Positions 23,901 to 43,790 are shown, numbered from the stretch's first letter. The stretch is 64,000 nt of DNA from Alphaproteobacteria bacterium bin52 (GCA_002238645.1 MPMT01000007.1:7502-71501), one strand, 5' to 3'. Made by a program: numbers and translations. Notes: generated by a model from the sequence alone, not told the origin.

Positions 23901-25185
23901 GCGCGATGCGATTGTACAGGCGCTGCGGGCCGGGGTCGTGCCCAAGCTTGGCCTAAGCCACATCCAGGTAGGCCGCGTCCGGGAAATCGAAGAACTCGTC
24001 AAAGACATGGACCGGATATCGGATGGCGGTTCGGCTATCCGGTTCATTGTTGGCGAATACGGGTCGGGCAAAACATTCTTCATGAACCTCATCCGGCTCG
24101 TTGCCCTCGAAAAGGGTCTGGTCGTGATGTTCGCGGACCTGGCGCCAGACCGGCGCATTCACGCCACGGGAGGGCAAGCTAGGGGGCTCTATGCCGAGAT
24201 GGCCCGAAACCTTTCAACGCGGACGAAACAAGATGGAGGGGCTTTGGCCAGTGTCGTGGAGCGGTTCGTCAGCCAAGCTCACCGCGACGCCGAAGAGCGC
24301 GATTTGCCCACGGGCTCTGTCATTCGGGAACGCCTAGGTCACTTCGAAGAACTCACTGGGGGTTTTGAGTTCGCAGAGGTCGTCCGGCGATATTGGGAAG
24401 GCCATGAGACGGGAGACGACGAACTGAAATCTGCCGCCTTGAGATGGCTGCGCGGTGAATTCGCCACACGCACTGACGCCCGAAAGGCTCTCGGTGTGCG
24501 CACGATCATCGACGATGCGAGAGTCTATGACCACCTTAAGCTGATGTCGGCATTTGTGTGCGAGGCCGGCTACAAGGGACTGCTTGTTGGCCTTGATGAG
24601 ATGGTGAACCTCTACAAGCTCACCTCTTCCCAGGCTCGCAACGCGAATTACGAGCAAATCCTCCGTATCCTCAACGATGTGCTGCAAGGCAGTGCTGAGA
24701 ACCTTGGTTTCCTCATGGGTGGCACACCGGAGTTTCTGATGAACACGCGTCGGGGGCTTTACAGTTACGAAGCCCTCCAGTCACGTTTGGCCGAAAACAC
24801 CTTCGCGCGCGACGGATTGGTCGATCTTTCCGGGCCGGTTGTTCGGCTTGCCAGCTTGACCCCCGAGGATCTCTTTGTGCTTCTGGGCAATGTTCGGCGC
24901 ATCATGCAGGACGACGCCAGCGCTTTGCCAGACGATGCGCTGGAGGCCTTCATGGCGCACTGTTCGGATCGTATCGGCGAAGCCTATTTTCGCACGCCGC
25001 GCAATACGGTGATGGCCTTCGTGAACTTGCTTTCCGTGCTTGAGCAAAATCCCGGTGTCGAATGGAACGATCTGATTGAAGAGATCGAGGTCGCGGAGGA
25101 CCTCGGCGAAGACATGACGGAGGTGGACGAGGAAATTGGCGCGCAAGACTCCGGTGACGATGATCTGATCAGCTTCAAACTCTGA
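23878..25185 (+). CDS. sngB: P-loop ATPase of the DUF2791 / BREX-type ATP-binding family (Shango SngB-like)
   Basis: The gene overlaps sngA by 23 nt. It has Walker A GEYGSGKT (24052-24075) within VGRVREIEELVKDMDRISDGGSAIRFIVGEYGSGKTFFMNLI, as I recall for DUF2791 proteins. Confidence 0.8.
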   Translation: MSKLKPRERDAIVQALRAGVVPKLGLSHIQVGRVREIEELVKDMDRISDGGSAIRFIVGEYGSGKTFFMNLIRLVALEKGLVVMFADLAPDRRIHATGGQARGLYAEMARNLSTRTKQDGGALASVVERFVSQAHRDAEERDLPTGSVIRERLGHFEELTGGFEFAEVVRRYWEGHETGDDELKSAALRWLRGEFATRTDARKALGVRTIIDDARVYDHLKLMSAFVCEAGYKGLLVGLDEMVNLYKLTSSQARNANYEQILRILNDVLQGSAENLGFLMGGTPEFLMNTRRGLYSYEALQSRLAENTFARDGLVDLSGPVVRLASLTPEDLFVLLGNVRRIMQDDASALPDDALEAFMAHCSDRIGEAYFRTPRNTVMAFVNLLSVLEQNPGVEWNDLIEEIEVAEDLGEDMTEVDEEIGAQDSGDDDLISFKL

Positions 25186-25190
25186 CGCCG

Positions 25191-27362
25191 ATGAGCAGTG
25201 CGTTCGATAAACTTGCAAGGCCTGTCCAGAAATGGATACGCCAGCAGGGCTGGCGCGAGCTTCGAGACATCCAGGCGCGATCCATCCGAACGATCTGCGA
25301 CAGCAATGCCGACTTGATCGTCGCGGCATCGACGGCAGGCGGAAAGACTGAGGCGGCGTTCCTGCCGCTGATTTCGCAAGTTCTTAATGAGCCCCCTGAC
25401 GGCTCGGGATTTGACCTGCTCTATATTGGTCCGCTCAAGGCATTGATCACAGATCAAGCCATGAGGCTGGAGGGCATCTGCCAGGAGGCAGAGATGCCGG
25501 TTGTTCCTTGGCATGGGGATATTTCGCAGTCGATCAAAACCCGCGCGTTGAAATTTCCCAGAGGGATCCTGCTGATCACGCCTGAGTCGCTTGAGGCGCT
25601 GTTCATCCGTCGTGGTTTAGAACTCCTTCGCCTGTTTGGTGCGACACGGACCGTCGTGATCGACGAGTTACACACGGTGCTCGACAGCGAGCGTGGCGTG
25701 CAGCTCCGTTCTCTGCTGACCCGCCTCGAGCTGGTGGACAACCGCCCGATCCGCCGCATAGGTCTGTCCGCCACGCTTGGCGATATGGGCCTCGCCAAGG
25801 CCTATCTACGCCCGGACAACGCTAGCGCTGTTCAACTGATCGAGGCTGAGGGCGGTGAAGCCGAACTGCGGCTCCAACTCCGCGGCTACCTGTCAGGCGA
25901 TAAAGACGAAAGCAGCCCATCCGCAACCGATGCGATCGCGGCACATCTGTTCAATCACCTTCGTGGCAGCGACAACCTGGTGTTCGCCGGAGCACGCCAG
26001 CGAGTCGAGATCTACGCGGATCGTTTGCGAGAACTCTGCGAAAAAGAACACCTGCCGCAGGAATTCTATCCCCACCACGCGAGCCTCTCCCGCGAACACC
26101 GTGACTTCGTAGAGCGCCGTCTCAAGGACCCCGCGAAACCGACAACTGCGGTTTGCACGTCGACGCTCGAGCTCGGCATAGACATTGGTGACGTGACCTG
26201 TGTGGCCCAAATCGGGGCGCCATTCAGCGTTGCCACGTTGCGACAACGGCTCGGCCGATCAGGCCGGCGCGAGGGACAGCCAGCAATCCTAAGGCAGTAC
26301 GCTGTCGAGACCAAGCTGACGCCGGAGAGCAGTTTCGTTGATCGCCTCCGTCTTGGCCTGGTCAGGTCTATCGCGATGATCGACTTGCTTTTGGAAGGCT
26401 GGTGCGAACCGCCAAAACCGCAGGCGCTTCATCTCTCGACACTGGTCCACCAGTTGTTATCGGTGATTGCGCAGCGTGGCGGTGCTTCCGCAGGCGCTAT
26501 ATACAATGTGCTCTGCCGTGAGGGCCCATTCCGAAAGGTCACGACCGAGGTCTTCGCGGATGTGCTGCGCGCGATCGGTCACCCTGAGACCGGTTTGATC
26601 GAGCAGTCTGGAAGCGGCCTCCTGCTCTTAGGTTCCGCGGGCGAGAGGTTGGTCGAGCATTACAGCTTCTATGCCGTGTTCCAGACGCCTGAGGAGTTCC
26701 GTCTGGTTGCAGATGGGCGGGACCTTGGCACCCTGCCAATCGACAATATCCTTGCACCGGGTATGCTTCTGATCTTTTCGGGGCGGCGTTGGGCGGTTCA
26801 AGAAATCCATGATCGCGAAAAGGTCATCGTGGTCAAACCCGCCAAGGCAGGTGTGCCGCCTGTCTTTGGCGGCGCTGCGGGTGACATTCATGACACCGTG
26901 ATTGATCGGATGTTCGCGGTTCTCGAAGGAGATGCCAAACCGGTCTACATGGACACGGTTTCCCTTTCGATGCTTGAGGAAGCGCGAGCCCATTATGTTC
27001 AACTAGGGTTTCGGACTAACAACATCCACAGTCTCGGTGAGCACACATCGATCATCGCAACGCGAGTTGGGACGGTGAAGACATCAACCCTCGCTCTCGC
27101 ACTCAGAAGCATAGGGTTTTCGGTCGAGCAACATGACGGGTTCTTGCTTGGGGAAGCTGGGGATGAAACACCCGATATTCAATCGGCACTAGGGGAAATT
27201 GTGTCCGGCGAACCCGTAGACCTGTTTGCCGGTGCAGGAAACCTAGTTACCGAGAAGTTTCATCGTTACCTGTCGCTGCCCCTTTTGGAGTTGGATGCCG
27301 CTTCTTCCAAGCTTGTGCCCGATCTTCTTCCGAGGGTGGCCAGTCGGATTTTTCAGGAATGA
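25191..27362 (+). CDS. sngC: DEAD/DEAH-box (Lhr-like) helicase (Shango SngC-like)
   Basis: The gene starts 5 nt after the sngB stop. It has helicase motif I AASTAGGKT and motif II VIDELH, plus later motifs (VFAGARQRVE, TSTLELGIDIGD, QRLGRSGRR). Confidence 0.85.
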   Translation: MSSAFDKLARPVQKWIRQQGWRELRDIQARSIRTICDSNADLIVAASTAGGKTEAAFLPLISQVLNEPPDGSGFDLLYIGPLKALITDQAMRLEGICQEAEMPVVPWHGDISQSIKTRALKFPRGILLITPESLEALFIRRGLELLRLFGATRTVVIDELHTVLDSERGVQLRSLLTRLELVDNRPIRRIGLSATLGDMGLAKAYLRPDNASAVQLIEAEGGEAELRLQLRGYLSGDKDESSPSATDAIAAHLFNHLRGSDNLVFAGARQRVEIYADRLRELCEKEHLPQEFYPHHASLSREHRDFVERRLKDPAKPTTAVCTSTLELGIDIGDVTCVAQIGAPFSVATLRQRLGRSGRREGQPAILRQYAVETKLTPESSFVDRLRLGLVRSIAMIDLLLEGWCEPPKPQALHLSTLVHQLLSVIAQRGGASAGAIYNVLCREGPFRKVTTEVFADVLRAIGHPETGLIEQSGSGLLLLGSAGERLVEHYSFYAVFQTPEEFRLVADGRDLGTLPIDNILAPGMLLIFSGRRWAVQEIHDREKVIVVKPAKAGVPPVFGGAAGDIHDTVIDRMFAVLEGDAKPVYMDTVSLSMLEEARAHYVQLGFRTNNIHSLGEHTSIIATRVGTVKTSTLALALRSIGFSVEQHDGFLLGEAGDETPDIQSALGEIVSGEPVDLFAGAGNLVTEKFHRYLSLPLLELDAASSKLVPDLLPRVASRIFQE

Positions 27363-28424: not shown

Positions 28425-28527
28425 TCACACTCAACGAGATGCTGTCAATCGATCGAACCAGTCAAAGACACGCCGCGAGTGCGTGGCGCCCGGAAGCGAT
28501 CGAGGGCAACGACCCCGGGGATAACCT

Positions 28528-28547
28528 TGTGGATAAACTGTGGATAA
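28528..28547 (+). promoter_or_regulatory. Two tandem perfect DnaA-box nonamers (TGTGGATAA) spaced 11 bp start-to-start
   Basis: TGTGGATAA occurs at 28528-28536 and again at 28539-28547, in the same orientation. It is the reverse complement of the TTATCCACA consensus. Function is unproven. Confidence 0.4.
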
Positions 28548-28589
28548 ATCCCAAACCCGCCAACCACGCCCCCTTGACGCGAAACATGG

Positions 28590-31383
28590 ATGCTCGCCGA
28601 TACCGGTCAGCAGCATCATGACGCCGAGGACAACTACCGGCTGCATGCTGCCGCACTCGCCGACATCGAACGGATGCGGTCCGAGGCCCAGGGCCTGCAG
28701 CGGAGCATCGACGCGGCCAATGCCGACCTCGCACCGCAGCGCGACCACCTCGCGCGCACGGGAGCCCACCTGAAGGCCACGCTGCTCCACCATGTCGAAC
28801 AGCGCCGGAAGCACCTGGCGGAGCACGAACGTGCGTGTCGATCGCTTGAGGATGATGCCGCCCGAACCGATGACAGGCGCCAGAGACTGTTGAGCACTCG
28901 GGACACGGAACGCGAGGAAACAACCAGGTTCGCCACCATGCTCGACACTGCGGCCCGGGCGGCCGAACGGTTGCGGGAACAGGGCGTTCTCGAAATCGAG
29001 GCGGCAGGAGAGGATGCGAGCCGCCAAGCCTGCCTCGAATGCCGCATCACACTGCGCGAAGGCCGTGCCCGGCTCGATGCAGGGCTTGAGCGGGATCGCG
29101 GTCCCGCACCGGGACGCGCTCGAAGCCGCGCGTCGCGCGATTGCGAACGCCCCCGAACCGAACAGACCGCTGATGGTGGCCACCGCCGACGACACGCCTT
29201 CGGACGCGCCTGATGACAGGTTCGTCATCCCGCACCCGCGTGATGCGGCCTACAGCCAGCTGGCCGCCCGGGACGGGCAGTCCCAGGTCGAGGATGAGCT
29301 TCAGGACCTCGCGCGACGCATCGACGAGCTCCGGCCCCGGCTTGAGCGCCTCGAAGAACTGCATCGCACTCACACCCTGTGGCGCCGCACCGCGCCTGAA
29401 CGAAAGGAGCTGCTCAAGCGTATCGACGAGGCGGAGCGCACCCGGGCCAGATATGACCGGGAAGTCGAGCAACTCGATGCATCGGCCGAGGCTCACGCAA
29501 ATCGGGCCAGGGACCATCGCCGCGCTGCTACCCAGGCGGACCACGAGGCCGTAGTCCACCGGACCCGCGCCGGTCGGGCCCGGGAACAGTTCGAGGAACA
29601 TGAACGCCATGAGACCGACTGGAAGCGCGAACAGCTCGCACATGCCGACCGGGCGGAACTGGCCATACGCGACGCCGAAGCAGCCCTTGCGGAGCGCGAC
29701 CGGCCGAACGACCAGGCCCGGGCGGAGGCCGGGGAAGCCGGAGCAGCGGCGCGCGAGGCAGCCGGTTTCGAGACCGAGGCCGATGCCGTCTCGCCCGTCG
29801 CCGGCCCGGGCTCCGTTTACCGAGACCTTGCTACACTGCGCGACGGTTTCAACGCCGAACGCAAGAGCTTGGAAGCACTTGAAGGCGGCAGGGTTGACCG
29901 GCTGCGCGGCGAAAAGGATGGCTTGGACAAGCAGCTCGTGCGCGCCGAACAGAAGTACGGCGCCGACCATCATCAATTCGACCGCGAGCGGGTGCGCGCG
30001 CTACTGGAGCAGAGCCTGGTTGAGGATGGCGCCCGCAGGGCCGCGACCACCCTCGACGCTGCCCGCGCCGCGCTTACCGATGCCGAGGTCGAGGAACGCC
30101 ACACCCGACACCAGTTCGAGCAGGAGCAGCGCCGGTTTGCCGAGATATTCGGCACTGGCGATGCCGACGACCTTTGCGATACGGACGATCTCGATGCGCT
30201 GCGCCGAAACGCGCAGGTCGGGGCCGAGACCCGTGAACGGGAGGCGCGCAGACACGAGCAGGACGCGGAGGCGGCCAGCTCGACTGCCGCAGCGGCCGAA
30301 GCCACCGCCGGGACTTTCCGGAACCGGGCCCGTGAGATTACGGGTCACCTGCCCGACGGGTTCGGCACCCCCGGCCGGGTTGCACAAGTGCCGGACGATC
30401 AGGCACTCGACGATGCCGTCGATACCCTGGTCCGCACACTGCGCGATGGCAACCGGACCCTCGCCGATGCCGAACAGGCGCTTCTCGACCGGCACGAGGA
30501 GGAACGCGGGTTCGCCACGTCCGACGGGTTCCGCGTCCTGAAGGGCGAAAGCCAGGTCGCCTCCAATCTCGCCGCCAACTCGGCCCGTGACGCTGCCGAT
30601 GCCGCGGAGCAGACCGCCCGGCTGATCGACGACAGACTGGCGACGATCGATCACGACCTTGCACGACTCGATCATGACCTTGCAACCTGCACCGGCGAAC
30701 TCGACATGCTGCTGCGCAGGGCGCTCGGAATCCTGGGCCGGATGGTGCGCGACGGGCGTATCCCCGACGGCGTACCGCGGTTCGGTGGCCAGAGCGTGTT
30801 CCGGATCGGGACCGACCTGTCGCGTCTTGCTTCCGACCGCAGACGGGACATCCTCGAGCAATACGTGACCGATCTGGCCGAGTCGAAACGGGTCCCCGAC
30901 ACCGGCCAGAACCTGGCGGCGGAGCTCGTGGACCGGCTGCGGGTTGCCCGCGGCATTTCCAGGCTCGGCATAAGAATTCTGAAACCGAAAGGTGAGAACG
31001 AGACCGAGTAAATGCCGCTCGAACAGACTGCGGTCTCCGGGGGCGAGCTTCTGACGGCGGCAATGATGATCTACCTCGTGGTCGCGCGTCTGCGTGCGGA
31101 GGAACTGCACGGCACAACAGGCGATGCCGGGATCCTGATGATGGACAACCCGCTGGGCAAGGCGAACAAGGCCCTGCTGGTCAAGACCCAGATCGGCCTT
31201 GCCGACGCGATGGGCATCCAGCTGTTCTATGCCACCGGCATCCAGGACACGAACGCGCTCGGGGAGTTCGAGAACATAGTCCGGCTGCGCCGGGCCTGGC
31301 GCGAACTCGGCACCGACAGGATCCATCTCGCGGTCGAGGCGATGCAGGCCCACGTCGACAGCTTGGAGCGGACAAATGGGTGA
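28590..31383 (+). pseudogene. SMC-like (JetC/MksB-like) ATPase remnant: coiled-coil arms plus C-terminal head, lacking the N-terminal Walker A head
   Basis: The long Glu/Arg/Ala/Leu coiled-coil reading is split between frame 0 (28590-29213) and frame 1 (29014-31011). That requires a frameshift near 29085-29110. An in-frame TAA (31009-31011) is followed directly by MPLEQTAVSGGELLTAAMMIY...GILMMDNPLGKANKALL (ABC/SMC signature SGGE plus a Walker-B-like segment). No P-loop head lies upstream. Confidence 0.55.
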
Positions 31384-32427
31384 CTTCGTCGGACACCTGC
31401 GCGGCCTCGGCAAGCGGCGGTTCACGCTCGAGGAACTGCGAACTGCGCATCTCGCCGCCTTCCCCGAGGCGGCGGACGCCCTTGCCCCGCGTCGGTTGCT
31501 GCTCGAGGCGCTCGAAGACGCACGGGCAGCCGGTCACATCGCCCTGCCGCACACCAAGTACTGGGAACGGACCGGGACGCCGCACCTGCCGAAGTCGGCT
31601 ACGCTGTACGCTGAAGGGCTCGCCGCAGGACCGGTACCCTGGCCGGTGGCCTGGGTCCCCGAACTTGCCTTTGCCTACAGCGAACGGGGCCGGTACCGCA
31701 CCGCGCTCACCGCCATCAACCGCTTCCTGCTCAGGCACCGGAACACTGCCCTGCGCGAGGTACCGGTCAACGAACGGTCGCTGCAGATCTTCGGCAACGA
31801 GAAGCGGCTCGAGACCGATCTCGACACCGACGGCTCCACCCTGTTTGGTGGCCGCATCCCCCTGGGACTGATCGGCTGCCGCCCGGTCACGCCGCCGCTT
31901 GCGTTCGAGAAACCGAACCGGCCCGCGCCCGGGATGCCGGTCCTGGTGCTGGAGAACCTGCATCCGTGGGAGAGTTTCCGGCTGTGGAACGCGACGCGGG
32001 GCAGCTACGCCGCCATCGCCTGCGGTTACGGCAACGCCCTGCGCAAGACGCACAGGCAGCTCGAACAGGTCGCGGAGCTGCCGGCGCATCCGGACTGCTC
32101 TACTTCGGCGACCTGGATCCGCCGGGTCTGGAGATCCCGACCGCGGTCAACCGCGAGCGGCAGGCCCGGGGTCTTGCGCCGCTCGAGCCGCACTGCGGAC
32201 TCTATCGCTGGCTACTGCGCCACGGCTGCCGGTGGCTCAGCGATGCCGGCGCGAAGCAAAGCCGCGCCCCGGCTGACCTGTCAAACTAGCTGCCGGACGA
32301 CATCGCCGCCGGTCTCGCGGAGCTGTGGGCAGCCGGAGAGGTAATCCCGCAGGAGAGTTTCAGCACCGATCAGCTGGCCGGACCCGACGCCGTCTGGGTC
32401 CTGCCCGGCCGGGCCGTGCCGTCGTGA
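31376..32427 (+). pseudogene. JetD/MksG-like (DUF2220 Toprim) protein, disrupted
   Basis: The gene overlaps the preceding ORF by 8 nt. It contains VLVLENLHPWESF. After a frame change near 32090-32100 it reads LLYFGDLDPPGLEIP, a Toprim/DUF2220-like motif. An in-frame TAG at 32287-32289 follows, and the reading continues to 32427. Confidence 0.6.
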
Positions 32428-34191: not shown

Positions 34192-34579
34192 CGCAAACGC
34201 GGACAGGTCCTTCCGGAAACAGCCGCAAGCGGCGCGCCCGGCACCATGACGCGAAACCTGCCGGCGGCGCCATCAGCGGGCCCGCGACCGCCACCCGTGC
34301 GGTCCGGTTCCGCTGCGCCGCCCCCTCCACGCGACTGGCCGCGCCCATTGACCAGGCGTCCGACGCACCCTTCGCGCACCTCCTGCCGGCGCGCAGATCA
34401 GTCTTCGGAATGACCCGGAACGATCGGTTGTCGGCGGGACCTCGTTGGCCGACGGTGCGGACTTTGGTGGACTGGGTGTGCTTCGCGGGAGCGTCTGTGC
34501 GACGTCACCGGGAGGCCGGACCCGAGCCGTGGGTTGCACGGCCATTCTCGTCGGCTTCTGCGCGTGCTGGAGGGATACG

Positions 34580-35605
34580 TCAAAGGGTGAGCCCTTCGGG
34601 CAATGCGACCTCTCCCGCTTCGCCCCTTGCCAACGGCACGGTCCGGTCCACTAGATCGCGCACGAGTTGTTGATGGCTGCCGAGCTTTCGGTTTCTTCCC
34701 AGGTGCTCCAGCCGATCCGCCATCGAGCGCATGAGGTCCGTCCCGCCGCGCACCTCCACACTCGGATCGGCGATACAGACGCGGAGCAGCCCTCGGACGA
34801 TGAACACGGTGTAGCGAAGCTCGAGTGCCCACTGGCCCTTGCCGCCGGGACGCCGGTCCGAGCGGCCCGCAGAGAGCCAGTCGAGCGCCGTGGTCGTGAG
34901 ACGCGTCACCTGGGAACGAAGTGCCGGGCGAGCCGCGAGCAGATCAGTCGTTTCCATTCTGCGGCCCATCGGATGGCTGATCGCCGCCAGCAAGAATTTG
35001 TCCGGTGTCGTGCCGTCCCAACAGCCAAGCAGGGTCTCCCAGACCGTCGCGAGGGCTGAGACCGTGTTCGTGCTCCGGCCGATCCCGGAGTAGGCGGCCC
35101 ACGCGCTGAAGGGGTTGTCGAGCCCGAGGCGGTCGGCAACGGCGCGGCCTTCGTCGGAGGTGCGCGCGAGCCCGGAAGCGAGCCTCAACGCGAGGGAGTC
35201 GGGGGCGTTCGTGAACATCCATGTCGGTACGGTGTGGACTCGATTGAGCGAGGCTCCCCTCTTGACCGTGCGTTGGCCGGTCAGCACTTCCTCAAAGCGA
35301 CCGACCATCGCGTCCCCGGCGTCGTTCACCAGGCGTCGACGTTCGCGTTCGGTCGTCTTGGCCTTGGGGGGGTCCGGATCTCGTACCCAAGGGGGGTCCC
35401 CCGCGCTGTCGATCGGATACCGGAGGTCGCTCCATTTCGAGTTGAAGATGTCGTAAAGACTCTTGTAGAGGTCGACAATCCTGGATCCTTCGGTGCGATC
35501 GTCTCGCCACCAGTCGCGAAGCTCGGCCAAATGGCTCTCGAGTTCGAGCCAAGCGTCCTCGTCGGCCTCGAAGACGTAAAGCAGAGGGATGGCCGCGACG
35601 TTCAT
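34580..35605 (-). CDS. Unknown 341-aa protein, last gene (E) of the McrBC-derived five-gene operon
   Basis: ATG 35603-35605 lies 13 nt downstream of the gene D stop and is preceded by a purine-rich AAGAGAG. The upstream part of track ORF 34580-36316 is an out-of-frame overlap with D. Composition looks coding, but I recognise no family. Confidence 0.6.
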   Translation of the reverse strand: MNVAAIPLLYVFEADEDAWLELESHLAELRDWWRDDRTEGSRIVDLYKSLYDIFNSKWSDLRYPIDSAGDPPWVRDPDPPKAKTTERERRRLVNDAGDAMVGRFEEVLTGQRTVKRGASLNRVHTVPTWMFTNAPDSLALRLASGLARTSDEGRAVADRLGLDNPFSAWAAYSGIGRSTNTVSALATVWETLLGCWDGTTPDKFLLAAISHPMGRRMETTDLLAARPALRSQVTRLTTTALDWLSAGRSDRRPGGKGQWALELRYTVFIVRGLLRVCIADPSVEVRGGTDLMRSMADRLEHLGRNRKLGSHQQLVRDLVDRTVPLARGEAGEVALPEGLTL

Positions 35606-35618
35606 CTCTCTTACCCGT

Positions 35619-38600
35619 TCAGTCGGGGTCCGACACACGAAGGATGGCGGGATGGGTCGCGATCTCACGACCGTCCAGCCCGTAAGGGTGGTGGTACAGC
35701 ACGAGTTGCGGCTCGCCTCCAAGCGGTCGCACGCGCACCCTCGGCTCAAGGCGCGTGTAGCCCCCGTGAAGTGCGCTGCGGTCGAGTTTGACCTCCTGGC
35801 GGTACTTCTCGTTGCCGGCCCCGGCGAGGAAGCCCTCCTGCCACTGGCCCTCCAGCCGTCGTCGCAGCTTGACCGGAACGCGCCATTCACCGGGCTGTAT
35901 CGAGAGCAGCACCTCATGCTGGGCTGGGGTAGTCCATAGGCCTCGGCCGGCTTCCAGCGCCTCGCGCTCGGGGATGAGGCGGAGCCACCAGCGTCCGTCC
36001 TCGTCTTCCTCGCATTTGTCGAGCGCAAGCCCCTCCGGCGGGGCGGCGACCTCGATGGCCAGGCTTTCGACGTGGTCGAGCCAGCAGACGTCGCCTTCGT
36101 CGAGGCGGCGTCCGATCTCCCAAGCACCCCGGAGGGTCTGCTCCGGCTCGACGGCCAGTACGGTGAGACCCGGCAACGCCGAGCTGATTTCTCGGGCTCC
36201 CGCGTCGCTCCAGCCCGGGATCGGACTCTCGACGAGAATTCGGCGGCAGCCGGTGCGTTCGGACAGGGCTCGGAGCGTTGCAACGAGCGATTCGTCGACG
36301 TCAATGGGGCGTGCATTGGGATCGTGACGACGCCGTATGGGAACCGCCTCGCCCCGCGTGAAGAGAAACGTCGATGTATTGCCCTCGTGCGGTTTTATCC
36401 GAGCCGCATCAAGGTGGAGGATGTCGGTCTGCGTCTTCAGATCGTCGACGTTCACTCCGGTTCGAGACCACGCGGCCTCGGCGGCGCGAAGTCGGCGGGG
36501 CCAGGGGGCCTCCCGGCCGGTGGCGACCGCGGAACCGCGAGTCATCCGCTCGACCAACAGCGGGACCTCGGCGCGCTGCCACGGCCGCAGCCGCGTATGG
36601 GTGAGGGCGACTTCGCCGTCCACCTGAACGATGAGGTAGTCTCCGGGCGCTCCACCGGTCAGTTTGTGGCCCTCCGTCACTGCGACGGACCGCCAGACGA
36701 GGAGGCAGCGCCGGTGCGGCCCGACGGCTTTGGAGAGGCCGTCGGCGACGCGTCGCTGTCTCTCTCCCGCTCGTAGCCCAGTGTCGGGCACGATCGCGAC
36801 GGCGAGCGGGTCGTCGCCCATGAGGCGGCGTACTGCGGACGAGACGAGTTCGTTGGCGAGGTCCATGGTCTCGATGTCGCCCAAAGGGATGTATGAGGCG
36901 GACCCGGTGGTCGGCTGGATCCTGGCTTGCGCGGCGACTTCTGTTGCCTCCCCGATCCCCCTTGCGCGAAGCGCCGTTCCGAGGAAGCGGACGTCGACCG
37001 ATCCGGTCGAATCTTCGCGGGCGAGGCGGGAGAACGAGGAGCGGAGATCGAGAGAGACGATGCCCGACCGGCTGCCGGATCGCCGGAGGCGTCCCAAGGG
37101 TGGTTCCGGGGCCAGCTTGGCGCCTCTTGGAACGCTGTGGAGGGTGGATGCGGTCGCTCGTTCGAGGAGCTTTCTTGTCCAGACCCGCCAGTTCCTCGCG
37201 CCGGTGTTGGTCGGGAGGGTGACGAGTCTTTCGCGCCGAGCCCGGCCGATCCAGTCAGCGCGATCGCTCGCGATCACGTGCAGCGCCGGACCGGGACCGA
37301 GCACGGTTGCGATCGCGCCGATCATGCAGCGGTCGTCCGTCGCGACCGAGAGGGAGGCGGAGGCGTGCTTGCCGACACGCAGGACGAGCGACGGGCCGTC
37401 GTCGGTCCAGTGTCGTCCCTGCGCCGGGGCGTCGCGCCGGATCGCGAGCGGGCCGCTCGCCACCACGAGTGGGGAGCTCTCGCCGAGCATGGCGCATATG
37501 GTTGCCTGGGCCTCATCCCGGCGGGTGAGCCCCTGCCAGATCCACTGCTGCTCGGCGCGCTGTTCCTGGCGGAGGAGGTCCAACCACGCCCCGAGGACAC
37601 GCCGGTAGCGCTCGTCGTGACGAAGCGCAAAACTCCGGTTCGTCGCCGTCGCGGCGTCGTGGGCCGGGGCTTGACGCGCGCCTTGGAGACGGAGTCCGTC
37701 GGCGACGCGCCGTGCCCGGTTCTGCATCGAACGTACGAGCTCGGCTCCGTGCGCCATATCGCCGCGCTCGGCAAGCCAAGACCTGGCCTCCGTGTCGTAG
37801 AGCGCCGCATAGGCGACCACGACGCGGTTCTCCAGGGTGTCGGTAGTCGCGTAGCGCTCCGGCGTCACCATCCTCTGCCGGGGGCCGCAGCGCTCCGCCG
37901 TCGAGCGTCCGGCTTGTCTGCACAGCCACCGGATCGTCTTGGCGTCCACCTCGCGTACCTTCGACAGGCGCACCGGGCGGTGGCGGCGGCGGAGGAGTCG
38001 ACGTGGGCTCCCCTCAATGCCCGCGAGCACAGGCAACAATGCCCGGGCCTGTTCCCGGAGGAGCTCTCCCAACGGATCGACCGCCTCCGGGTCGGCCTCG
38101 CTCGCGAGAATCGCGGCCGATGTGCGCCAGAGCACGGACTGGTCATGGCAGACCGCGCTCGCGTCCGCGACGCGCTTCATGCGGTTGGCGGCGCGGTCCA
38201 ACCTATCGAGGGTCCGTCCGGAGCGTTGCTTTGTTGCCGATGTACCCGCAGCTTGGCGCCGCCCTTCCCATGACTCGACGTTGATCGTGAACGACTGGTC
38301 GAGTGTTACCCAGACACGAATTCGACTGACCCGGGCCGGTCGGGCGGGGAGGTGCCACGCCAACCATTCGGCATCGATGTCGAGGCTCCCCGTGCCGCGC
38401 CCGCGGGTTCGCGGAAGATGTTGCCGGCTTCCCAGATAGATCCAGGGTGGAACCTCGCAGAGGGTGGAGTGCTCCGTGGGGGAGAGTCGATCGACGATCA
38501 GAATCGCATCGGCACGGGCGCGGTCCGGACCAAGCTCCTCCCCGCTCCGGACCGGTTGCACGACCGCCGAGCCGTCCCCGGCAACGGCAGCATGCAGATC

Positions 38601-38630
38601 GTACAGACTCCGGGCGACGCGAATCCTCAA
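35619..38630 (-). CDS. 1003-aa protein (gene D): McrC/DUF2357-like N-terminal half fused to a putative degenerate Hsp70/actin-like ATPase-fold half
   Basis: The TTG start lies 3 nt after the gene C stop; an alternative GTG sits at codon 23. The TLENR motif (aa 265-269, nt 37824-37838) is followed by the RYRRVLGAWLDLL helix, as in McrC-type partners. Residues ~520-850 follow the Hsp70 motif order (IVSLDLRSSFS; LAVAIVPDTGLRAGERQRRVADGLSKA; LIVQVDGEV; RILVESPIPGW; AVEPEQTLRGAWEIG). Confidence 0.7.
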   Translation of the reverse strand: MRIRVARSLYDLHAAVAGDGSAVVQPVRSGEELGPDRARADAILIVDRLSPTEHSTLCEVPPWIYLGSRQHLPRTRGRGTGSLDIDAEWLAWHLPARPARVSRIRVWVTLDQSFTINVESWEGRRQAAGTSATKQRSGRTLDRLDRAANRMKRVADASAVCHDQSVLWRTSAAILASEADPEAVDPLGELLREQARALLPVLAGIEGSPRRLLRRRHRPVRLSKVREVDAKTIRWLCRQAGRSTAERCGPRQRMVTPERYATTDTLENRVVVAYAALYDTEARSWLAERGDMAHGAELVRSMQNRARRVADGLRLQGARQAPAHDAATATNRSFALRHDERYRRVLGAWLDLLRQEQRAEQQWIWQGLTRRDEAQATICAMLGESSPLVVASGPLAIRRDAPAQGRHWTDDGPSLVLRVGKHASASLSVATDDRCMIGAIATVLGPGPALHVIASDRADWIGRARRERLVTLPTNTGARNWRVWTRKLLERATASTLHSVPRGAKLAPEPPLGRLRRSGSRSGIVSLDLRSSFSRLAREDSTGSVDVRFLGTALRARGIGEATEVAAQARIQPTTGSASYIPLGDIETMDLANELVSSAVRRLMGDDPLAVAIVPDTGLRAGERQRRVADGLSKAVGPHRRCLLVWRSVAVTEGHKLTGGAPGDYLIVQVDGEVALTHTRLRPWQRAEVPLLVERMTRGSAVATGREAPWPRRLRAAEAAWSRTGVNVDDLKTQTDILHLDAARIKPHEGNTSTFLFTRGEAVPIRRRHDPNARPIDVDESLVATLRALSERTGCRRILVESPIPGWSDAGAREISSALPGLTVLAVEPEQTLRGAWEIGRRLDEGDVCWLDHVESLAIEVAAPPEGLALDKCEEDEDGRWWLRLIPEREALEAGRGLWTTPAQHEVLLSIQPGEWRVPVKLRRRLEGQWQEGFLAGAGNEKYRQEVKLDRSALHGGYTRLEPRVRVRPLGGEPQLVLYHHPYGLDGREIATHPAILRVSDPD

Positions 38631-38633
38631 TTG

Positions 38634-40535
38634 CTAATCCGCGCGGGTCCGGTCGAGGCCGAGCCAAGTGAACGTGCTGTGGTTCGGGATGGCGTCGATA
38701 CGGGCGTCGAGCGCCGAGGCAAGGTCGTCGTCGCCCACGTTCTCGACCACGTCGCGCAGCGTACGGAGGCCTTTTCTCAACGCGTCCGTATCTTCGGAGC
38801 CGTTGAGCTTCGGGAGCACTCTCATCTCGACTTGGTCCGCGATGGCGTGCCGCCAGCTTCCGGGATAGCAGCGGACGTAGTGGTACATCGCCTGCACCAC
38901 GCGGTGCCCGACCCCCCGCTCGCACTCCGTGATCGCCCGTGCGATTTCGCGAATGGAGCCCTCGACCGCGAGCATGTCGGTGTCTTCCCGCTTCCGGCCG
39001 CACCACTTCTCGAAGAGCATTGCCGTCACATATTCTGTCTGCCGAGGGGCGGCCGGCTCGTCGCTCAGTCGATCCACCTGGAGATTCCCCTCGCTTGGCG
39101 CAGCGAAGCGCAGGGTGTTGCTCCGGTCAAGGACCTTGTCGGAAAGACTTTGCGTTGTTTCGTCCTCGTTGAGCGTTCCCGTCCAGAGCACACGATACGG
39201 AATGGCGAGGCGCATCGCCTGGATCTCGCCGTTTGCGCGTTTCGGCATCTGGATCGCGACTTGGCTTTCAGCGTAACCCGCCCCCCCCGGCTCGCGCATT
39301 TCAAGCCGACTCAGGAGTTCAGCGAAGTAGTACTCCGTGCGGGCGAGGTTCATCTCGTCGAGGAGGATGACGGCCAGCCGATTGGTGAATCGTTTGGCTT
39401 CGTCCGGCCAGTTGGCACTGTCGAAGTGCACCAGTAGCTGGGCTCGCTCGGTGGCCCTGTATTGCCCGGAGATGTAGTCGTAGAAGCCAAGCAGGTCCTG
39501 CGGGCTGTCCCATCCCGGCTCCACCGGGACGTGGAGGAACGCGGCGCCGAGGGCGCGAGCATACTCCCTCGGGAGCTGCGATTTTCCCGTTCCGGATACG
39601 CCAGCAAGGACGGTTAAAGGCGAGATTGACCGAGTCTTCACGGCGGTGTGAAAGGCCCTCACCGTGCGGGGGTGGTAGCGAAGCCTCTGGGCTTCGAGCT
39701 GCTGCTCGAGGTTGTCGAGAAACTCGTCCTCCCGCTCCACGGGCCGATCCGTCGGCAGCGGCTCGTAGTCCTCTACTTCGGTCAGGCAAGCGGGGGTGTC
39801 ACGGAGCTCGTCGATCCCTGGTCCCGTCTCTTCCGGACGATCCACCTGCACTCGCAACGGTCCCTCGGGAAACGTCACCTCTCCTCCGGTGAGCTGGGCA
39901 TTCTCGAGTGCCTCTTTCACTTCCTTCGCCGCAGCCAGCTCCTGGAGCGCGTTGTCGCGTTGGCGTATCGCGCCCTCGCACTCCTCCCTTGCTTGGTCCC
40001 GAGTACGGCGAGCCTCCTGCGCGTCGGCCTGAAGCTCTGAAACTTCCTTCTTCAGGTGACTGATTTGGTCGCGCAATCGCGCATGCAGTTCGCTGTGCTT
40101 CTCCAGTTCCACCTCAAGGCGCTTCTTCTCTGCGTCGAGGCCATCTGTGGCCCGCCGCAAGCGTTCCATCTCTGCGAGTTTCTCGTCGGCTCCTTGGAGT
40201 TGGCGTTGCTTCTGGTCGAGGCGGCTCTCGAGTTCCGCAACCGTACGGTTGACCTCTTCGCGAGCCGTGTCGAGGGCCTGTTCGTCTCGCTGGATCTGCT
40301 GTGCCTGTTCAATCGTGTTCTTCGCGTCGCGATATTCGGCGTCGATCGAGGTGAGCGACGCCGAGACGCGATCATGCTCGGCCAGGAGCTGGGCGATCCT
40401 CGCTCGCCACAGGTCCAGTTCGCCTCGCCGAACAGCCCCGACAAAGATCGCCACGGCAAAGCCGACGAGGACCGCGGTCAGCGTGGTGGCCCCGTGGAGT
40501 ATCCATCCTTGCGCTACCCACGACGGCCAAGTCAT
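38634..40535 (-). CDS. Membrane-anchored coiled-coil McrB-like AAA+ GTPase (gene C)
   Basis: It has an N-terminal TM helix (ILHGATTLTAVLVGFAVAIFVGAV) and ~170 aa of coiled coil. Walker A GVSGTGKS is at 39579-39602 and Walker B is AVILLDEMNLA. GTLNEDETTQSLSDKVLDRSNTLRF matches the McrB/AAA_5 signature. The start overlaps the gene B stop (ATGA). Confidence 0.8.
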   Translation of the reverse strand: MTWPSWVAQGWILHGATTLTAVLVGFAVAIFVGAVRRGELDLWRARIAQLLAEHDRVSASLTSIDAEYRDAKNTIEQAQQIQRDEQALDTAREEVNRTVAELESRLDQKQRQLQGADEKLAEMERLRRATDGLDAEKKRLEVELEKHSELHARLRDQISHLKKEVSELQADAQEARRTRDQAREECEGAIRQRDNALQELAAAKEVKEALENAQLTGGEVTFPEGPLRVQVDRPEETGPGIDELRDTPACLTEVEDYEPLPTDRPVEREDEFLDNLEQQLEAQRLRYHPRTVRAFHTAVKTRSISPLTVLAGVSGTGKSQLPREYARALGAAFLHVPVEPGWDSPQDLLGFYDYISGQYRATERAQLLVHFDSANWPDEAKRFTNRLAVILLDEMNLARTEYYFAELLSRLEMREPGGAGYAESQVAIQMPKRANGEIQAMRLAIPYRVLWTGTLNEDETTQSLSDKVLDRSNTLRFAAPSEGNLQVDRLSDEPAAPRQTEYVTAMLFEKWCGRKREDTDMLAVEGSIREIARAITECERGVGHRVVQAMYHYVRCYPGSWRHAIADQVEMRVLPKLNGSEDTDALRKGLRTLRDVVENVGDDDLASALDARIDAIPNHSTFTWLGLDRTRAD

Positions 40536-41578
40536 TGGGACGTACCAACCGCGGTTCCGATGAGCCGTTGCAGCTCCTCCAACCCAGCTTTGGCTTCATC
40601 CCGCGCCGTCCGGAGACGGGTGAGGTCGGAGCGAAGCGCCGCTTTCTTTGCTTCGAGTTCAGTGACCTGCCGTTCCGCTGCCCCGCGGCTCGCCTCTACC
40701 CGATCCAACGCCGCTTGCGCTTCGTGCATGCGCGACTCGGCGTCCAGGGCTTCCTGAACAGCCGCTTCGCGGTCCTTTCCCATCTGCGCCATTGCTTCGG
40801 CCGCGTTGCGAACGGTGCCTTCGAGGCGTTTCTCGTCGTCGCGAAGCCGCGTGATCCGGGCTTCCAGACCCGCTGCCTCGGGACCGAGCTTGAGGAGCTG
40901 AGCTTCGAGCGCGCGGTGCTGCGTCTCGAGGCGGACCTTCTCGCGGTTTGCTTCCTCGACCTGCTCGAGCGTGGCGCTAAGCTCCTCGCGTGCCTTTTCG
41001 TTTCCAGTCACAGTCTCGGTCAGCGATCGCTTTGCTTCGGTGAGGTCGGTGCGCGCTTGATCAAGCTCACTGCGGGCATTCGTCGTGGCGGAGCGGACAT
41101 CCTCAAGCTGGCGCGTCCCAGTTTCGAACAACTGTTCCAGCTCGGTTTTCTGTTGTTGGAGGCCTTCAATCGAGAGTCCGAGATCCCGTTGACGGCGTTC
41201 GAGCGTGGCGACGTTGGCTGACAGGTCGGCTTCCGTCTTCCCAAGCTGCTTGACGCTTTCCCGGGTTGCGTTCTCCTCTTCTTGAATCGTCCGCAGAGTC
41301 GTATGGGCGTGGTTTAGCCGGGTCGTCACTTCGTCGGCTTCCAGCCGAATCTGCTCCGTCTGCTCAACCAGTTTCTCGATCTGAAGCTCAAGGCGATCGC
41401 GGCGCTGGCCGAGTTGCTCCACGTCGGCCTCAAGTGCCAAGCGCTGCCCGGGAAGCCCCTCAAGTGCGTCGTCCACCTGCGAACGGGCGATGTTGAGCAG
41501 GGCGGCCGTGACGATCATTGCCAATGCCAAGGCCGACAAGACGATCCTTCCTCCTGTCGAGACCAACTTTGTGCTCAT
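40532..41578 (-). CDS. Membrane-anchored all-coiled-coil protein (gene B)
   Basis: The internal ATG at 41576-41578 overlaps the gene A stop (ATGA). The product has a TM helix (IVLSALALAMIVTAALLNI) followed by ~300 aa of uninterrupted heptad-like Glu/Leu/Arg/Gln/Ala sequence. Confidence 0.7.
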   Translation of the reverse strand: MSTKLVSTGGRIVLSALALAMIVTAALLNIARSQVDDALEGLPGQRLALEADVEQLGQRRDRLELQIEKLVEQTEQIRLEADEVTTRLNHAHTTLRTIQEEENATRESVKQLGKTEADLSANVATLERRQRDLGLSIEGLQQQKTELEQLFETGTRQLEDVRSATTNARSELDQARTDLTEAKRSLTETVTGNEKAREELSATLEQVEEANREKVRLETQHRALEAQLLKLGPEAAGLEARITRLRDDEKRLEGTVRNAAEAMAQMGKDREAAVQEALDAESRMHEAQAALDRVEASRGAAERQVTELEAKKAALRSDLTRLRTARDEAKAGLEELQRLIGTAVGTSQ

Positions 41579-42525
41579 TGTTCTCTCAGTTCCTCTATTC
41601 GTTGCTGGACGCGGGCGGCACATGCCCGAGCGTCTTGGTCGACCTGATCGGACCAGAAGCGAAGTGGCTCCCAACCGAGCAGTCGCATGCGGCGGTCGCG
41701 GTCGACATCCTCTGGGCGGAGGCGTCCGTCGGGTCCCTGATGGTAGAGGCGTCCGTCGACCTCGATGTCGAGCCGCACGATTGGGGGCCCGGGCTCCTCA
41801 TAAGCGAAGTCGAGCCAGCTTCCGCCCACCGGCCGCTGGCTCTCGACCTCGATTTGGGCGCCGGCGAGCGCGGCTTCGAGGTGCCGTTCACTGTTCGAGG
41901 CGGTCCCACCACGGCCGCGTTCGGCCTCGCGGGTGATCGCACGCTCTGCCCAACGGGCGAGCCCCGCCAGCCCTTCCGGGGTGGTGCATGGACCAACGAA
42001 GTGGACGAGCGTTCCTGCATGGCGGAAAGCGGTGAGGAGTTCGTGCTCCGCTACGTCGGGAAGTACCGTGGTCGTGTCCCAGTAGACCAGATCGCCGTTC
42101 ATGCCGATCAGCTTGGCGCGCTCTGACTCGGTCAGCTGACCTGTAAGGACCTCAACACGGGGAGCTTCCGACAACAGAATCTTGGCGAGCGTGATCTCGG
42201 CCGCGATGCGGTTCGGGATCTGTTTGGGGGGACAGGTGGTCCAATGCCAACGTTGCCAATTCTTGCGGGCGTCGGCGAGCGTCCAGCCGCGAATTCTGGA
42301 GGGGAAGACCTTCCCATCTAGAAGCAGGCGGCAGACCTCGAGGAGCGCCCCGGGGCTGAGGGTTACGGCTTCGCCATCGGAGCATACTCGGCTCAGCCGT
42401 ACGCCTGCGAGTCGAGCGGTATGGCGAGCGCCGAGCCAGCGTCCTTGGGGTCGAGCTTGCGAGGGAAGTCGGGATTCCAACGGGGGATCTGCGGTCTCGT
42501 GCGCGGCGTGCTGAGGTTCGCCCAT
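41575..42525 (-). CDS. Protein with C-terminal DUF559 / Vsr-like PD-(D/E)XK endonuclease domain and unknown N-terminal ~210 aa (gene A)
   Basis: The C-terminus (..SWLDFAYEEPGPPIVRLDIEVDGRLYH...DVDRDRRMRLLGWEPLRFWSDQV) matches the DUF559 pattern (xDF..., IExDG, RDxxLxxxGWxVLRF). The putative catalytic D239/E255/D257 are present. Confidence 0.7.
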   Translation of the reverse strand: MGEPQHAAHETADPPLESRLPSQARPQGRWLGARHTARLAGVRLSRVCSDGEAVTLSPGALLEVCRLLLDGKVFPSRIRGWTLADARKNWQRWHWTTCPPKQIPNRIAAEITLAKILLSEAPRVEVLTGQLTESERAKLIGMNGDLVYWDTTTVLPDVAEHELLTAFRHAGTLVHFVGPCTTPEGLAGLARWAERAITREAERGRGGTASNSERHLEAALAGAQIEVESQRPVGGSWLDFAYEEPGPPIVRLDIEVDGRLYHQGPDGRLRPEDVDRDRRMRLLGWEPLRFWSDQVDQDARACAARVQQRIEELREQ

Positions 42526-43790
42526 CGTGCCGCCCGCGATGAGGGGGAACTACCCGCAGGCTATAGGTACGAGACCGAAACCGTGGCCGATTTCACGCGC
42601 CGGGACAGAATGCCGCGATTTGGGGGGCGAAGCTGCCTCGACAGACATTCCCGAGACCCCGTCGGTGGCGGCGGACGACTTGCTTCCCGACACATACAAC
42701 ATTGCACACTCCCCTCGTTAATCGTCCGGGAGGAACCGGGACGATTCGCTATTCCGCTTTGCCCTCCCGCACTAGATACGCCGCCGGGCGCCTGAGCCCG
42801 GCCCCGGGAAGCCGGTCAACGCCGCAATCTGTCGCAGGCCGCCGTCGAATGCACTCCCTTCGAATAAAGATCTCATCTGATAGCCGAGTTTAGCCGTATC
42901 GACAACATAAACCTGTCGTGGTTTCCGTGTGCTGAGCCGCTCCTCAGCATGAGAATAGGTTCCAGCCGCACGAGCGGGACTTCGGGCCTATTCGGGGTCG
43001 TCGTCCCGGCCGCGATCGCCGCCACTCCCGCCCAGCCGTTGCTGGCGTTGGCCGAGCACGGGGTGCGGCTGATCGCCGCGGCGCGCTGGTAGCGGGCCGG
43101 AGGCCTGAGGGGACCAGCAGCGGCCGCGCGAGGTGTTCGGCCGGAATACGTTCGTCGAGCGCGTCGGCGACTTTGCGCTCAAGTCGATCCCGAGAGCCAG
43201 CGACCCACGGTCGCATCGTGGCGGTGCGGGCGTATAGTCCCGGCAGCGCAGTGTCGGTGCGGCTGATGACCGTCGAGAACGGCCGGAGCGTCCTGCGGGT
43301 GGCGAACCCCGGCCGATCCGGAACGGCGAGGCCGGCCGGCCGGTTCCTCCCGGGCCATCAGACGTCACGGGTGCTCCGACGCACGGCCGCCCTGCGAACG
43401 CTCCCACTCCGACAACGGCGTACCCCCGCATTCAGGCGGGAACACGAACGCCCTCCCGGCGATCCGGGTGCGGGCCCGGATCGAAACCCCTACCCGGGAT
43501 TTCCGCCAAGCCGGTCGTGGTCGCTTCGGCGACCGCGTCTTCGCCGCCGCCATGAGCCGCCGCCTCGAACCGGGAGTTACCCGGGATGACCCCCCAGGGA
43601 GTGAGCCGGTGGCGCGGCCGGCACCGACCGCAGTGCGGCAGGCCGTTTGCGCTCCCGTACCGACTCGACTGCGGCCGGGACAGTCGGTCAGCTCGTGAGG
43701 ACGAGAGGGATTGGGGGCGTGCAGGCAATGGTGCGAGCAGACGTGACGTCAGGTCCCGGCAGGACCCTGCTGTTCAGACCTGCGCGGTTG

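Follow-up and report, generated by a model that had tools for sequence, protein, structure and literature searches.

The stretch of DNA analysed here (the window: 64,000 nucleotides of Alphaproteobacteria bacterium bin52, GCA_002238645.1 MPMT01000007.1:7502-71501) carries on its minus strand a cassette of five closely packed or overlapping genes, which encode a Vsr-like nuclease, a CnuA-like and a CnuB-like protein, and two further proteins, D and E, related to the CnuC and CnuD components of CoCoNuT systems (Table 1). CoCoNuTs are predicted anti-phage systems; as defined by Bell et al. 2024 (eLife 13:RP94800, PMC11090510), they combine an McrB-like GTPase of the NxD type with coiled coils and with a second nuclease. 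We focus on gene D, in which an adaptor of the McrC/DUF2357 type and a very divergent Hsp70-like unit, consisting of a nucleotide-binding domain (NBD) and a beta-type substrate-binding domain (SBD-beta), are joined in one polypeptide.

Table 1. Features of the cassette, of protein D and of the neighbouring region (positions counted from the first letter of the window; residues are those of protein D)
Feature	Position	Strand	Residues of D	Remarks
Five-gene cassette (Vsr-like nuclease, CnuA-like, CnuB-like, D, E)	34519..42549	(-)		only stretch common to locus L004
Vsr-like protein, 316 aa	41575..42525	(-)		C-terminal PD-(D/E)xK domain, aa ~190-315 of this protein; Pfam MTES_1575 3.4e-10, DUF559 7e-6
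CnuA-like protein	40532..41578	(-)		one putative N-terminal transmembrane helix, long coiled coil
CnuB-like protein, 633 aa	38634..40535	(-)		putative N-terminal transmembrane helix, coiled coil (aa ~35-215 of this protein), McrB-type AAA+ GTPase
Gene D, 1003 aa	35619..38630	(-)	1-1003	CnuC-like adaptor, Hsp70-like NBD and SBD-beta, fused; single open reading frame
DUF2357 (McrC N-terminal) core	37818..38063	(-)	190-271	Pfam PF09823, E 1e-7, score 32 bits (cut-off 23.3)
Middle region	37149..37487	(-)	~382-494	aligns with ~500-aa stand-alone CnuC homologues
Linker and divergent start of Hsp70 lobe I	36867..37148	(-)	495-588	pLDDT <50
Hsp70-like NBD core	36081..36866	(-)	589-850	pLDDT mostly ~76-96 per 10-residue block
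Interdomain linker W850-L-D-x-V854 and SBD-beta-like domain	35622..36080	(-)	851-1003	all-beta in the model
IVSLDLRSSFS, phosphate-1 candidate			524-534	in low-confidence stretch aa 495-588
LAVAIVPD			609-616	strand in the model
LLVWRSVAV			643-651	strand, then helix in the model
YLIVQVDGEV			665-674	beta hairpin in the model
RILVESPIPGW			797-807	strand, then helix in the model
AVEPEQ...EIG			826-840	helix in the model
Gene E, 341 aa	34580..35605	(-)		C-terminal helical domain of CnuD as its own gene
Long overlapping open reading frames	28431-32344			for example 29014-31011 (+), 665 aa, and 31376-32344 (+), 322 aa
TerB/BrxD/helicase block	21354-27362	(+)		TerB_N/TerB/TerB_C protein (848 aa), BrxC/BrxD-family ATPase (435 aa, E 2e-151), DEAD/Helicase_C helicase (723 aa)

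Gene D adjoins, and lies downstream of, the gene of the McrB-type AAA+ GTPase (CnuB-like), with a TTG start codon 3 nt past the stop codon of that gene. As an earlier note made from this DNA alone had stated, it is a single uninterrupted open reading frame; homologues of the same length occur in other assemblies. Its kin in independent metagenome assemblies comprise seven full-length versions (980-1010 aa, 79-94% identity, differing mainly at the called start) and one 772-aa fragment, and an identical entry at NCBI, from an Alphaproteobacteria metagenome-assembled genome (MAG), is annotated as "DUF2357 domain-containing protein". Compared with the copy at locus L004 (92.6% identical), the ratio of nonsynonymous to synonymous substitution rates (dN/dS) is 0.19 for the whole gene and 0.11-0.34 for the individual domains, including a value of 0.21 for aa 496-608. 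Because dN/dS is this low throughout and because the linker motif W-L-D-x-V is near-invariant, the domains of D should still be functional; the substitution pattern indicates that the gene is not decaying and that all of its domains are under purifying selection.

The C-terminal half of D escapes detection by sequence comparison. No match for aa 480-1003 was found in Pfam, NCBIfam, PADLOC or the PDB sequence set, D does not match PF00012 (HSP70), a PDB sequence search with a family profile of the C-terminal half was likewise empty, and alignment of the family profiles A4 and A5 with E. coli DnaK by hhalign reached a probability of at most 1.5%, with the top alignment on the wrong lobe. As every profile library missed it, the Hsp70 fold of D could be confirmed only by structure prediction with a purpose-built alignment. 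A word-index search started from a C-terminal profile of four sequences gave no more than two fragments, and scans of genome and metagenome collections for the C-terminal domain yielded three genome loci and two metagenome loci (L005, L006). The CnuD part of the homologous protein P0012, used as a single query, led to 59 further relatives of the C-terminal half, nearly all of them stand-alone proteins of ~830-890 aa without a Pfam domain. With an alignment of 71 sequences, AlphaFold2 modelled aa 495-1003 with a predicted template modelling score (pTM) of 0.73 and a mean predicted local distance difference test score (pLDDT) of 69.5, aa ~589-995 being mostly confident; an earlier run with a 13-sequence alignment had a pLDDT of 40 and was unusable. 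Three places in the NBD core are weaker, with a pLDDT of 55-69 (near aa 595-604, 615-624 and 745-774). The weakly modelled first part of lobe I is also where D departs from its relatives: by BLAST, aa 641-981 align with residues 146-488 of a stand-alone CnuD (5e-7), and aa 496-640 show no similarity to residues 1-145 of its typical relatives.

Searched against the PDB with Foldseek, this model had 197 matches with E <= 0.001; the best 50 of these, on which identities were judged, are all Hsp70-family structures or complexes holding one. DnaK, BiP, Hsc70, mortalin, Sse1 and Ssz1 are among the matches, the best being DnaK (7krv_B, E 3e-10, probability 1.0, ~460 columns). Hsp70 constructs comprising both NBD and SBD align over ~450-500 columns (E 3e-10 to 1e-8), whereas NBD-only structures align over ~300 columns (E ~1e-6), which indicates that the model holds both domains; the tail, aa ~851-1003, can therefore be assigned to SBD-beta. 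The order of secondary structure elements in the model is that of an Hsp70 NBD, and the linker W850-L-D-x-V854, which corresponds in position to VLLLDV of DnaK, is retained in 58-60 of 61 relatives, depending on the residue. According to the model, aa ~590-1003 of D thus fold as an Hsp70 unit with NBD, linker and beta substrate-binding domain. It could be argued that aa 520-850 form a generic actin-like (ASKHA) or even an unrelated fold whose resemblance to Hsp70 is coincidental, as no sequence-based method detects Hsp70 in D and identity to the Hsp70 structures in the Foldseek alignments is only 9-14%. Yet MreB, actin and sugar kinases are not among the best 50 matches, the similarity runs through the linker into the Hsp70-specific SBD-beta, and Bell et al. 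2024 independently assigned an Hsp70 NBD/SBD to CnuD of Type III CoCoNuTs, to which D is tied via P0218, the CnuD of locus L013. We consider this explanation largely refuted and very improbable.

These results bear on several proposals of the earlier note, in which the structure check made here on aa 495-1003 by AlphaFold2 and Foldseek had been suggested and has now recovered the Hsp70 fold. The Hsp70 motif order postulated for aa 520-850 is borne out for aa 589-850, with an ambiguous phosphate-1 part. Four of the five proposed motifs lie on confident elements of the model in Hsp70 order, and the fifth, IVSLDLRSSFS, falls into the low-confidence stretch. The tail that had looked beta-rich and was left unassigned is indeed all-beta in the model and now has an assignment. 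A guess at a very divergent Hsp70 fold, made from sequence only, has thus proved correct.

Which residues of D correspond to the signature residues of DnaK was judged from motif order and predicted secondary structure, the DnaK numbering having been checked. On this mapping, the catalytic E171 of DnaK (in NEPTAA) would be replaced by R647 in the motif WRSVA (aa 646-650), which is near-invariant in the family and whose arginine is invariant in every relative with a residue at that column. In the phosphate-2 loop (DLGGGT), D194, G196-G198 and T199 of DnaK would correspond to Q669, D671-G672-E673 and V674 of D, and typical relatives carry S-V-N-R-R-T at this place. The glycines G341-G342 of the adenosine motif would be E801-S802, followed by P803, so that E-S-P would take the place of GGQ in DnaK; E801 and P803 are near-invariant across the family. 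The earlier claim that key glycines and threonines are replaced agrees well with these putative equivalences. For the phosphate-1 region the assignment is ambiguous: an alignment of six sequences and a weak hhalign result (probability 18%) pair IVSLDLRSSFS with the phosphate-1-like family motif FVTLDVNGW, and the 71-sequence alignment pairs it with the family strand LGFRSCLY. If the former is right, D528 may sit at the position of D8 in DnaK. Judged by its replaced signature residues, as placed by this mapping, the Hsp70-like domain of D is catalytically degenerate.

The main rival to the explanation that we favour below is that the Hsp70-like domain of D still binds ATP or ADP and acts as a nucleotide switch without meaningful hydrolysis, similar to Hsp110/Sse1 and Ssz1, its nucleotide state gating SBD docking and CnuB activity. 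Bell et al. 2024 argued that CnuD homologues probably bind ATP/ADP and hydrolyse it very poorly, the good structural matches of D include Sse1 and Ssz1 (Foldseek ranks 11, 19 and 22), the interdomain linker is near-invariant, and a residue corresponding to D8 of DnaK may be retained. In addition, NBD and SBD of the model superpose better on docked, ATP-type structures of DnaK and Sse1 (7krv, 4b9q, 4jn4, 2qxl; root-mean-square deviation ~8-10 A) than on undocked ones (2kho, 2v7y, 4ani; 17-25 A). This large difference suggests a constitutively docked conformation of the modelled unit. However, on the above mapping the glycine pair of the adenosine/phosphate motif has become Glu-Ser-Pro family-wide, the glycine loop of phosphate-2 reads D-G-E in D and N-R-R in its relatives, and all members have an arginine at the position of E171. 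In the D clade, moreover, the phosphate-1 region diverges and its model is poor. On balance we regard a nucleotide switch as rather unlikely.

The N-terminal half of D is more readily recognized. The motif DTLENR at aa 264-269 lies inside the DUF2357 core, in accordance with the McrC/DUF2357-style ENR motif noticed earlier. An exhaustive phmmer search identified 602 relatives, nearly all of which align only to aa ~60-460 and are stand-alone proteins of ~470-560 aa; BLAST aligns aa 69-450 with a stand-alone CnuC at 1e-42, and the N-terminal and middle regions of D are both common to stand-alone CnuC proteins. In a Pfam scan of D and 40 homologues of its N-terminal half, DUF2357 was present in 40 of the 41 proteins; a PDB sequence search with the N-terminal family profile matched no McrC structure. 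One might nevertheless suppose that D itself cleaves the target, being an McrC nuclease that is intact but carries unrelated insertions, and the ~110 residues shared with stand-alone CnuC (aa 382-494) could be a remnant of the nuclease fold. Yet the same Pfam scan revealed no PD-(D/E)xK nuclease family in D or the 40 homologues, (D/E)xK is absent from aa 382-494, a column that is mostly Glu in the homologues is Ala430 in D, and the operon encodes a separate, apparently intact Vsr-like nuclease. The earlier failure to find a convincing PD-(D/E)XK triad is therefore confirmed at the level of sequence, and we reject an intact nuclease as hardly credible. The middle region may be an inactivated nuclease remnant, and by its motifs the N-terminal part of D is an McrC/DUF2357 adaptor without a recognizable nuclease motif.

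How the two halves are joined varies among relatives. The usual arrangement is two proteins, a CnuC of ~500 aa and a CnuD of ~850 aa, the latter comprising NBD, SBD and a helical domain. A five-gene operon is conserved at loci L001, L003, L008, L009 and L010; at L001, L008, L009 and L010 it encodes a Vsr-like protein (304-365 aa), a coiled-coil protein, a GTPase, a DUF2357 protein (489-509 aa) and an Hsp70-like protein (838-860 aa). Among the 150 best representatives, only P0012 (1241 aa) and P0020 (1360 aa), each a single fused protein, are collinear with D past aa 460 (BLAST of D 69-981 against P0012 64-1010, 2e-40). Fusions of CnuC and CnuD account for 3 of these 150 and for 1 of 60 among the relatives of the C-terminal half. 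Comparison of these proteins indicates that split CnuC and CnuD are the rule and fusion is the exception, which answers the question, raised in the earlier note, whether homologues are split into two genes. The window shows yet another arrangement, with CnuC, NBD and SBD fused in D and the helical domain in gene E. The latter starts 13 nt past the stop codon of D in a different frame and has no Pfam match; its aa 5-339 align with residues 519-841 of a stand-alone CnuD (BLAST, 4e-38), the helical domain termed HEAT-like by Bell et al. 2024. The split into 1003 and 341 aa recurs at L004 and in 12 further 341-aa cluster members.

Taking into account that CnuC and CnuD are encoded separately in most relatives, and that the CnuD gene at L002 is interrupted, the fusion in D and the split between D and E might be an assembly or frameshift artefact or the product of a decaying pseudogene. 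This is contradicted by the recurrence of D in several independent assemblies, either at 1003 aa or within the range of 980-1010 aa given above, by a pair of the same lengths (1003 and 341 aa) at L004, by dN/dS values not exceeding 0.34 in any domain, and by other independent fusions (P0012, P0020 and the 1020-aa P0009). An artefact is the least probable of the explanations weighed here, and we reject it. The interruption at L002 (7489-9941, Alphaproteobacteria MAG) consists of ~2.4 kb carrying a 550-aa open reading frame on the opposite strand, probably an insertion sequence; because it breaks the gene, this CnuD copy is likely inactive. Gene order also varies: at L011 (1-9415) genes for a coiled-coil protein, CnuB and the fused DUF2357-Hsp70-like P0009 are followed downstream, not preceded upstream, by the gene of a 1020-aa UPF1-like helicase-Vsr protein, which points to repeated reshuffling of CoCoNuT modules.

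The remaining genes of the cassette are in keeping with this family. In the Vsr-like protein, the residues of the pattern LDFA...IEVDGR..H...RD (D, ExD, H, RD) are conserved in seven orthologues, and aa 185-310 share 34-38% identity with the Vsr end of the helicase-Vsr proteins of L011 and L013; by these signatures it is likely the effector nuclease and apparently intact. Its N-terminal ~190 aa are conserved among the helicase-less relatives and match neither any family nor the CnuH helicase. The likely start of the CnuA-like protein, as judged from the translation, is the ATG at 41578, right after the stop codon of the upstream gene; this protein has weak, sub-threshold matches to coiled-coil families only (SMC, Rad50, DivIC) and no other domain. 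The CnuB-like protein contains Pfam AAA_5 at aa 309-415 and matches PADLOC PDC-M26A (2e-36). Its motifs GVSGTGKS (Walker A), ILLDEMN (Walker B) and LNEDE (NxD, then E) are found in seven orthologues; the context of NxD is GTLNEDET in these seven and GTMNEDES in the CnuB proteins of the helicase-containing loci L011 and L013, to which the CnuB-like protein is 35-37% identical over its full length. Its aa ~35-215, like nearly all of CnuA, match coiled-coil families only (SMC, Rad50, JetC). The hydrophobic N-terminal segment of the CnuA-like protein is conserved in orthologues, and a single hydrophobic, transmembrane-like N-terminal helix is present on both the CnuA-like and the CnuB-like protein in all orthologues (L001, L003, L008-L011, L013). 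We read these segments as transmembrane helices. In the available part of Bell et al. 2024 we met no mention of membrane anchoring for Type III-B.

Comparison with known systems places the locus closest to Type III-B CoCoNuTs, as a rearranged helicase-less variant with shifted gene boundaries. The published Type III-B gene set consists of CnuH, a helicase-Vsr fusion, and CnuA, CnuB, CnuC and CnuD, and is found mainly in Alphaproteobacteria (Bell et al. 2024). The window shares with it the alphaproteobacterial host, a separate CnuA that is purely coiled coil, a CnuB GTPase with NxD and an N-terminal coiled coil, a DUF2357-containing CnuC without active nuclease, an Hsp70-like NBD/SBD with helical domain, and a Vsr-like PD-(D/E)xK protein as second nuclease. 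At L013, which has exactly the published Type III-B composition with a helicase-Vsr gene next to homologous CnuB, CnuC and CnuD (P0218), CnuB is 37% identical to that of the window, and the CnuC, CnuD and Vsr domains are detectably homologous. Unlike Type III-B, however, the window fuses CnuC to NBD/SBD, has the helical domain as the separate gene E, and lacks CnuH: no UPF1-like superfamily 1 (SF1) helicase is encoded in the cassette, the Vsr domain resides on a 316-aa protein, and this protein has no helicase similarity. The absence of a helicase and the location of Vsr on a small protein are common to all eight loci of the helicase-less group that were examined (L001, L002 by layout of open reading frames only, L003, L004, L008-L010 and the window).

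Covalent linkage of an McrC adaptor to a degenerate Hsp70 is itself not without precedent. Type III CoCoNuTs include both DUF2357-Hsp70 NBD/SBD fusions (CnuCD) and separate CnuD proteins, and CnuCD of Type III-A combines DUF2357, Hsp70-like NBD/SBD and HEAT-like repeats (Bell et al. 2024). The earlier note's reading has stood up for the McrC-like adaptor as well as for the degenerate Hsp70, but the coupling that it deemed unusual was published in 2024, and D is therefore not the discovery of a principle. D resembles Type III-A CnuCD in that an McrC N-terminal adaptor is joined to a degenerate Hsp70 NBD/SBD and accompanied by a coiled-coil NxD GTPase. In contrast to D, which keeps its N-terminal and middle regions and lacks the helical domain (encoded by gene E), CnuCD reportedly lost the N-terminal beta-sandwich and nuclease region and often has cold-shock domains. 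Type III-A further includes a CnuH that bears SmpB-like and RNase-toxin-like domains, a CnuE that bears two HEPN domains and, in most cases, TerY-P (Bell et al. 2024), none of which is encoded in or beside the cassette of the window. Set apart from Type III-A by the published description, the fusion in D looks to have arisen independently.

Beyond CoCoNuTs, D shares its layout with Hsp70s (DnaK, BiP, Hsc70, and also Hsp110/Sse1 and Ssz1): an actin-like NBD of two lobes is followed by a hydrophobic linker and then by a beta-sandwich SBD, and the succession of secondary structure elements agrees as well. It differs from them by its low identity and the missing Pfam HSP70 match, by the apparent replacement of catalytic and glycine-loop residues, by a shortened and divergent lobe I in the D clade, and by the lack of an alpha-helical lid, in place of which a helical domain of another kind follows, encoded by gene E. 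Like E. coli and Thermococcus McrBC (Type IV restriction), the cassette pairs an AAA+ GTPase with a DUF2357 partner encoded immediately downstream, but its GTPase has NxD where McrBC has NxxD, a transmembrane helix and coiled coil take the place of the DNA-reading domain, and the partner has no PD-(D/E)xK nuclease.

The best explanation for these observations, to which we assign a probability of roughly 0.8, is that D represents the CnuC-CnuD component of an McrBC-derived, CoCoNuT-type system in which the Hsp70-like unit serves as a ligand clamp or switch and the Vsr-like protein cleaves. By analogy with McrBC, the DUF2357 part of D would insert into the CnuB hexamer and stimulate GTP hydrolysis; McrC stimulates the GTPase via a conserved Arg/Lys contacting the Asp of the signature motif (Bell et al. 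2024). The Hsp70-like unit would not be a chaperone ATPase but would bind a ligand, either as a clamp or as a switch that is coupled via the linker, the ligand being perhaps a phage-derived or aberrant RNA or peptide. Of these, RNA is favoured by Bell et al. 2024, who noted degenerate nucleotide motifs in Hsp70-like CoCoNuT proteins and proposed an RNA-binding role. Ligand binding would be signalled from the Hsp70-like unit to the CnuB GTPase, and conservation of the linker suggests that docking between NBD and SBD still transmits this signal. Cleavage of nucleic acid would fall to the Vsr-like protein and not to D. Fusion of CnuC to NBD/SBD would fix a 1:1 stoichiometry that relatives may reach with separate proteins, and the putative transmembrane helices of CnuA and CnuB would put the machine at the membrane.

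Several points weigh against this explanation. In the model, the first ~94 residues, including the phosphate-1 region, are unreliable, and the correspondence between D and DnaK was derived from motif order and predicted secondary structure and not from a residue-level structural alignment. CnuH, whose helicase nearly all published CoCoNuTs of Types II and III possess (Bell et al. 2024), is absent from the cassette, and the published mechanism may therefore not transfer. In addition, our literature search found no experimental study of any CoCoNuT component, the hits other than Bell et al. 2024 and a preprint citing it being unrelated.

Going one step further, the window and L001, L003, L004 and L008-L010 might constitute an undescribed CoCoNuT subtype, which would be helicase-less and membrane-tethered, with Vsr on a small protein bearing a new ~190-aa N-terminal domain, with boundaries between CnuC and CnuD redrawn in the D clade independently of Type III-A, and with an Hsp70-like unit acting as a nucleotide-free clamp. 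We put this forward tentatively, as possible but in its entirety doubtful. If true, the clamp would keep the linker-docking allostery of Hsp70 and couple ligand capture at the membrane to activation of the GTPase and release of the nuclease. The locus in any case adds a compact, five-gene, CoCoNuT-like cassette without helicase. As no CoCoNuT has yet been tested experimentally, such a small, self-contained cassette offers a practical entry point, and the naturally fused and split pairs of adaptor and Hsp70 represent ready constructs for the study of crosstalk between a dead Hsp70 and an McrB-type GTPase.

The cassette is an 8-kb mobile unit in an Alphaproteobacteria MAG: identity to L004 is 92.6% at the nucleotide level over 8032 bp, and both flanks are unrelated. 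Its neighbours in L004 are integrase and recombinase genes; in the window it is flanked by an ABC-F/EttA gene and by MlaC/MlaA genes. Between the EttA gene and a block of TerB, BrxD and helicase genes lie long overlapping open reading frames without Pfam match. This block, ~7 kb from the cassette and with a G+C content of 0.57-0.60 compared to ~0.66, appears to be a second module of defence type, acquired separately.

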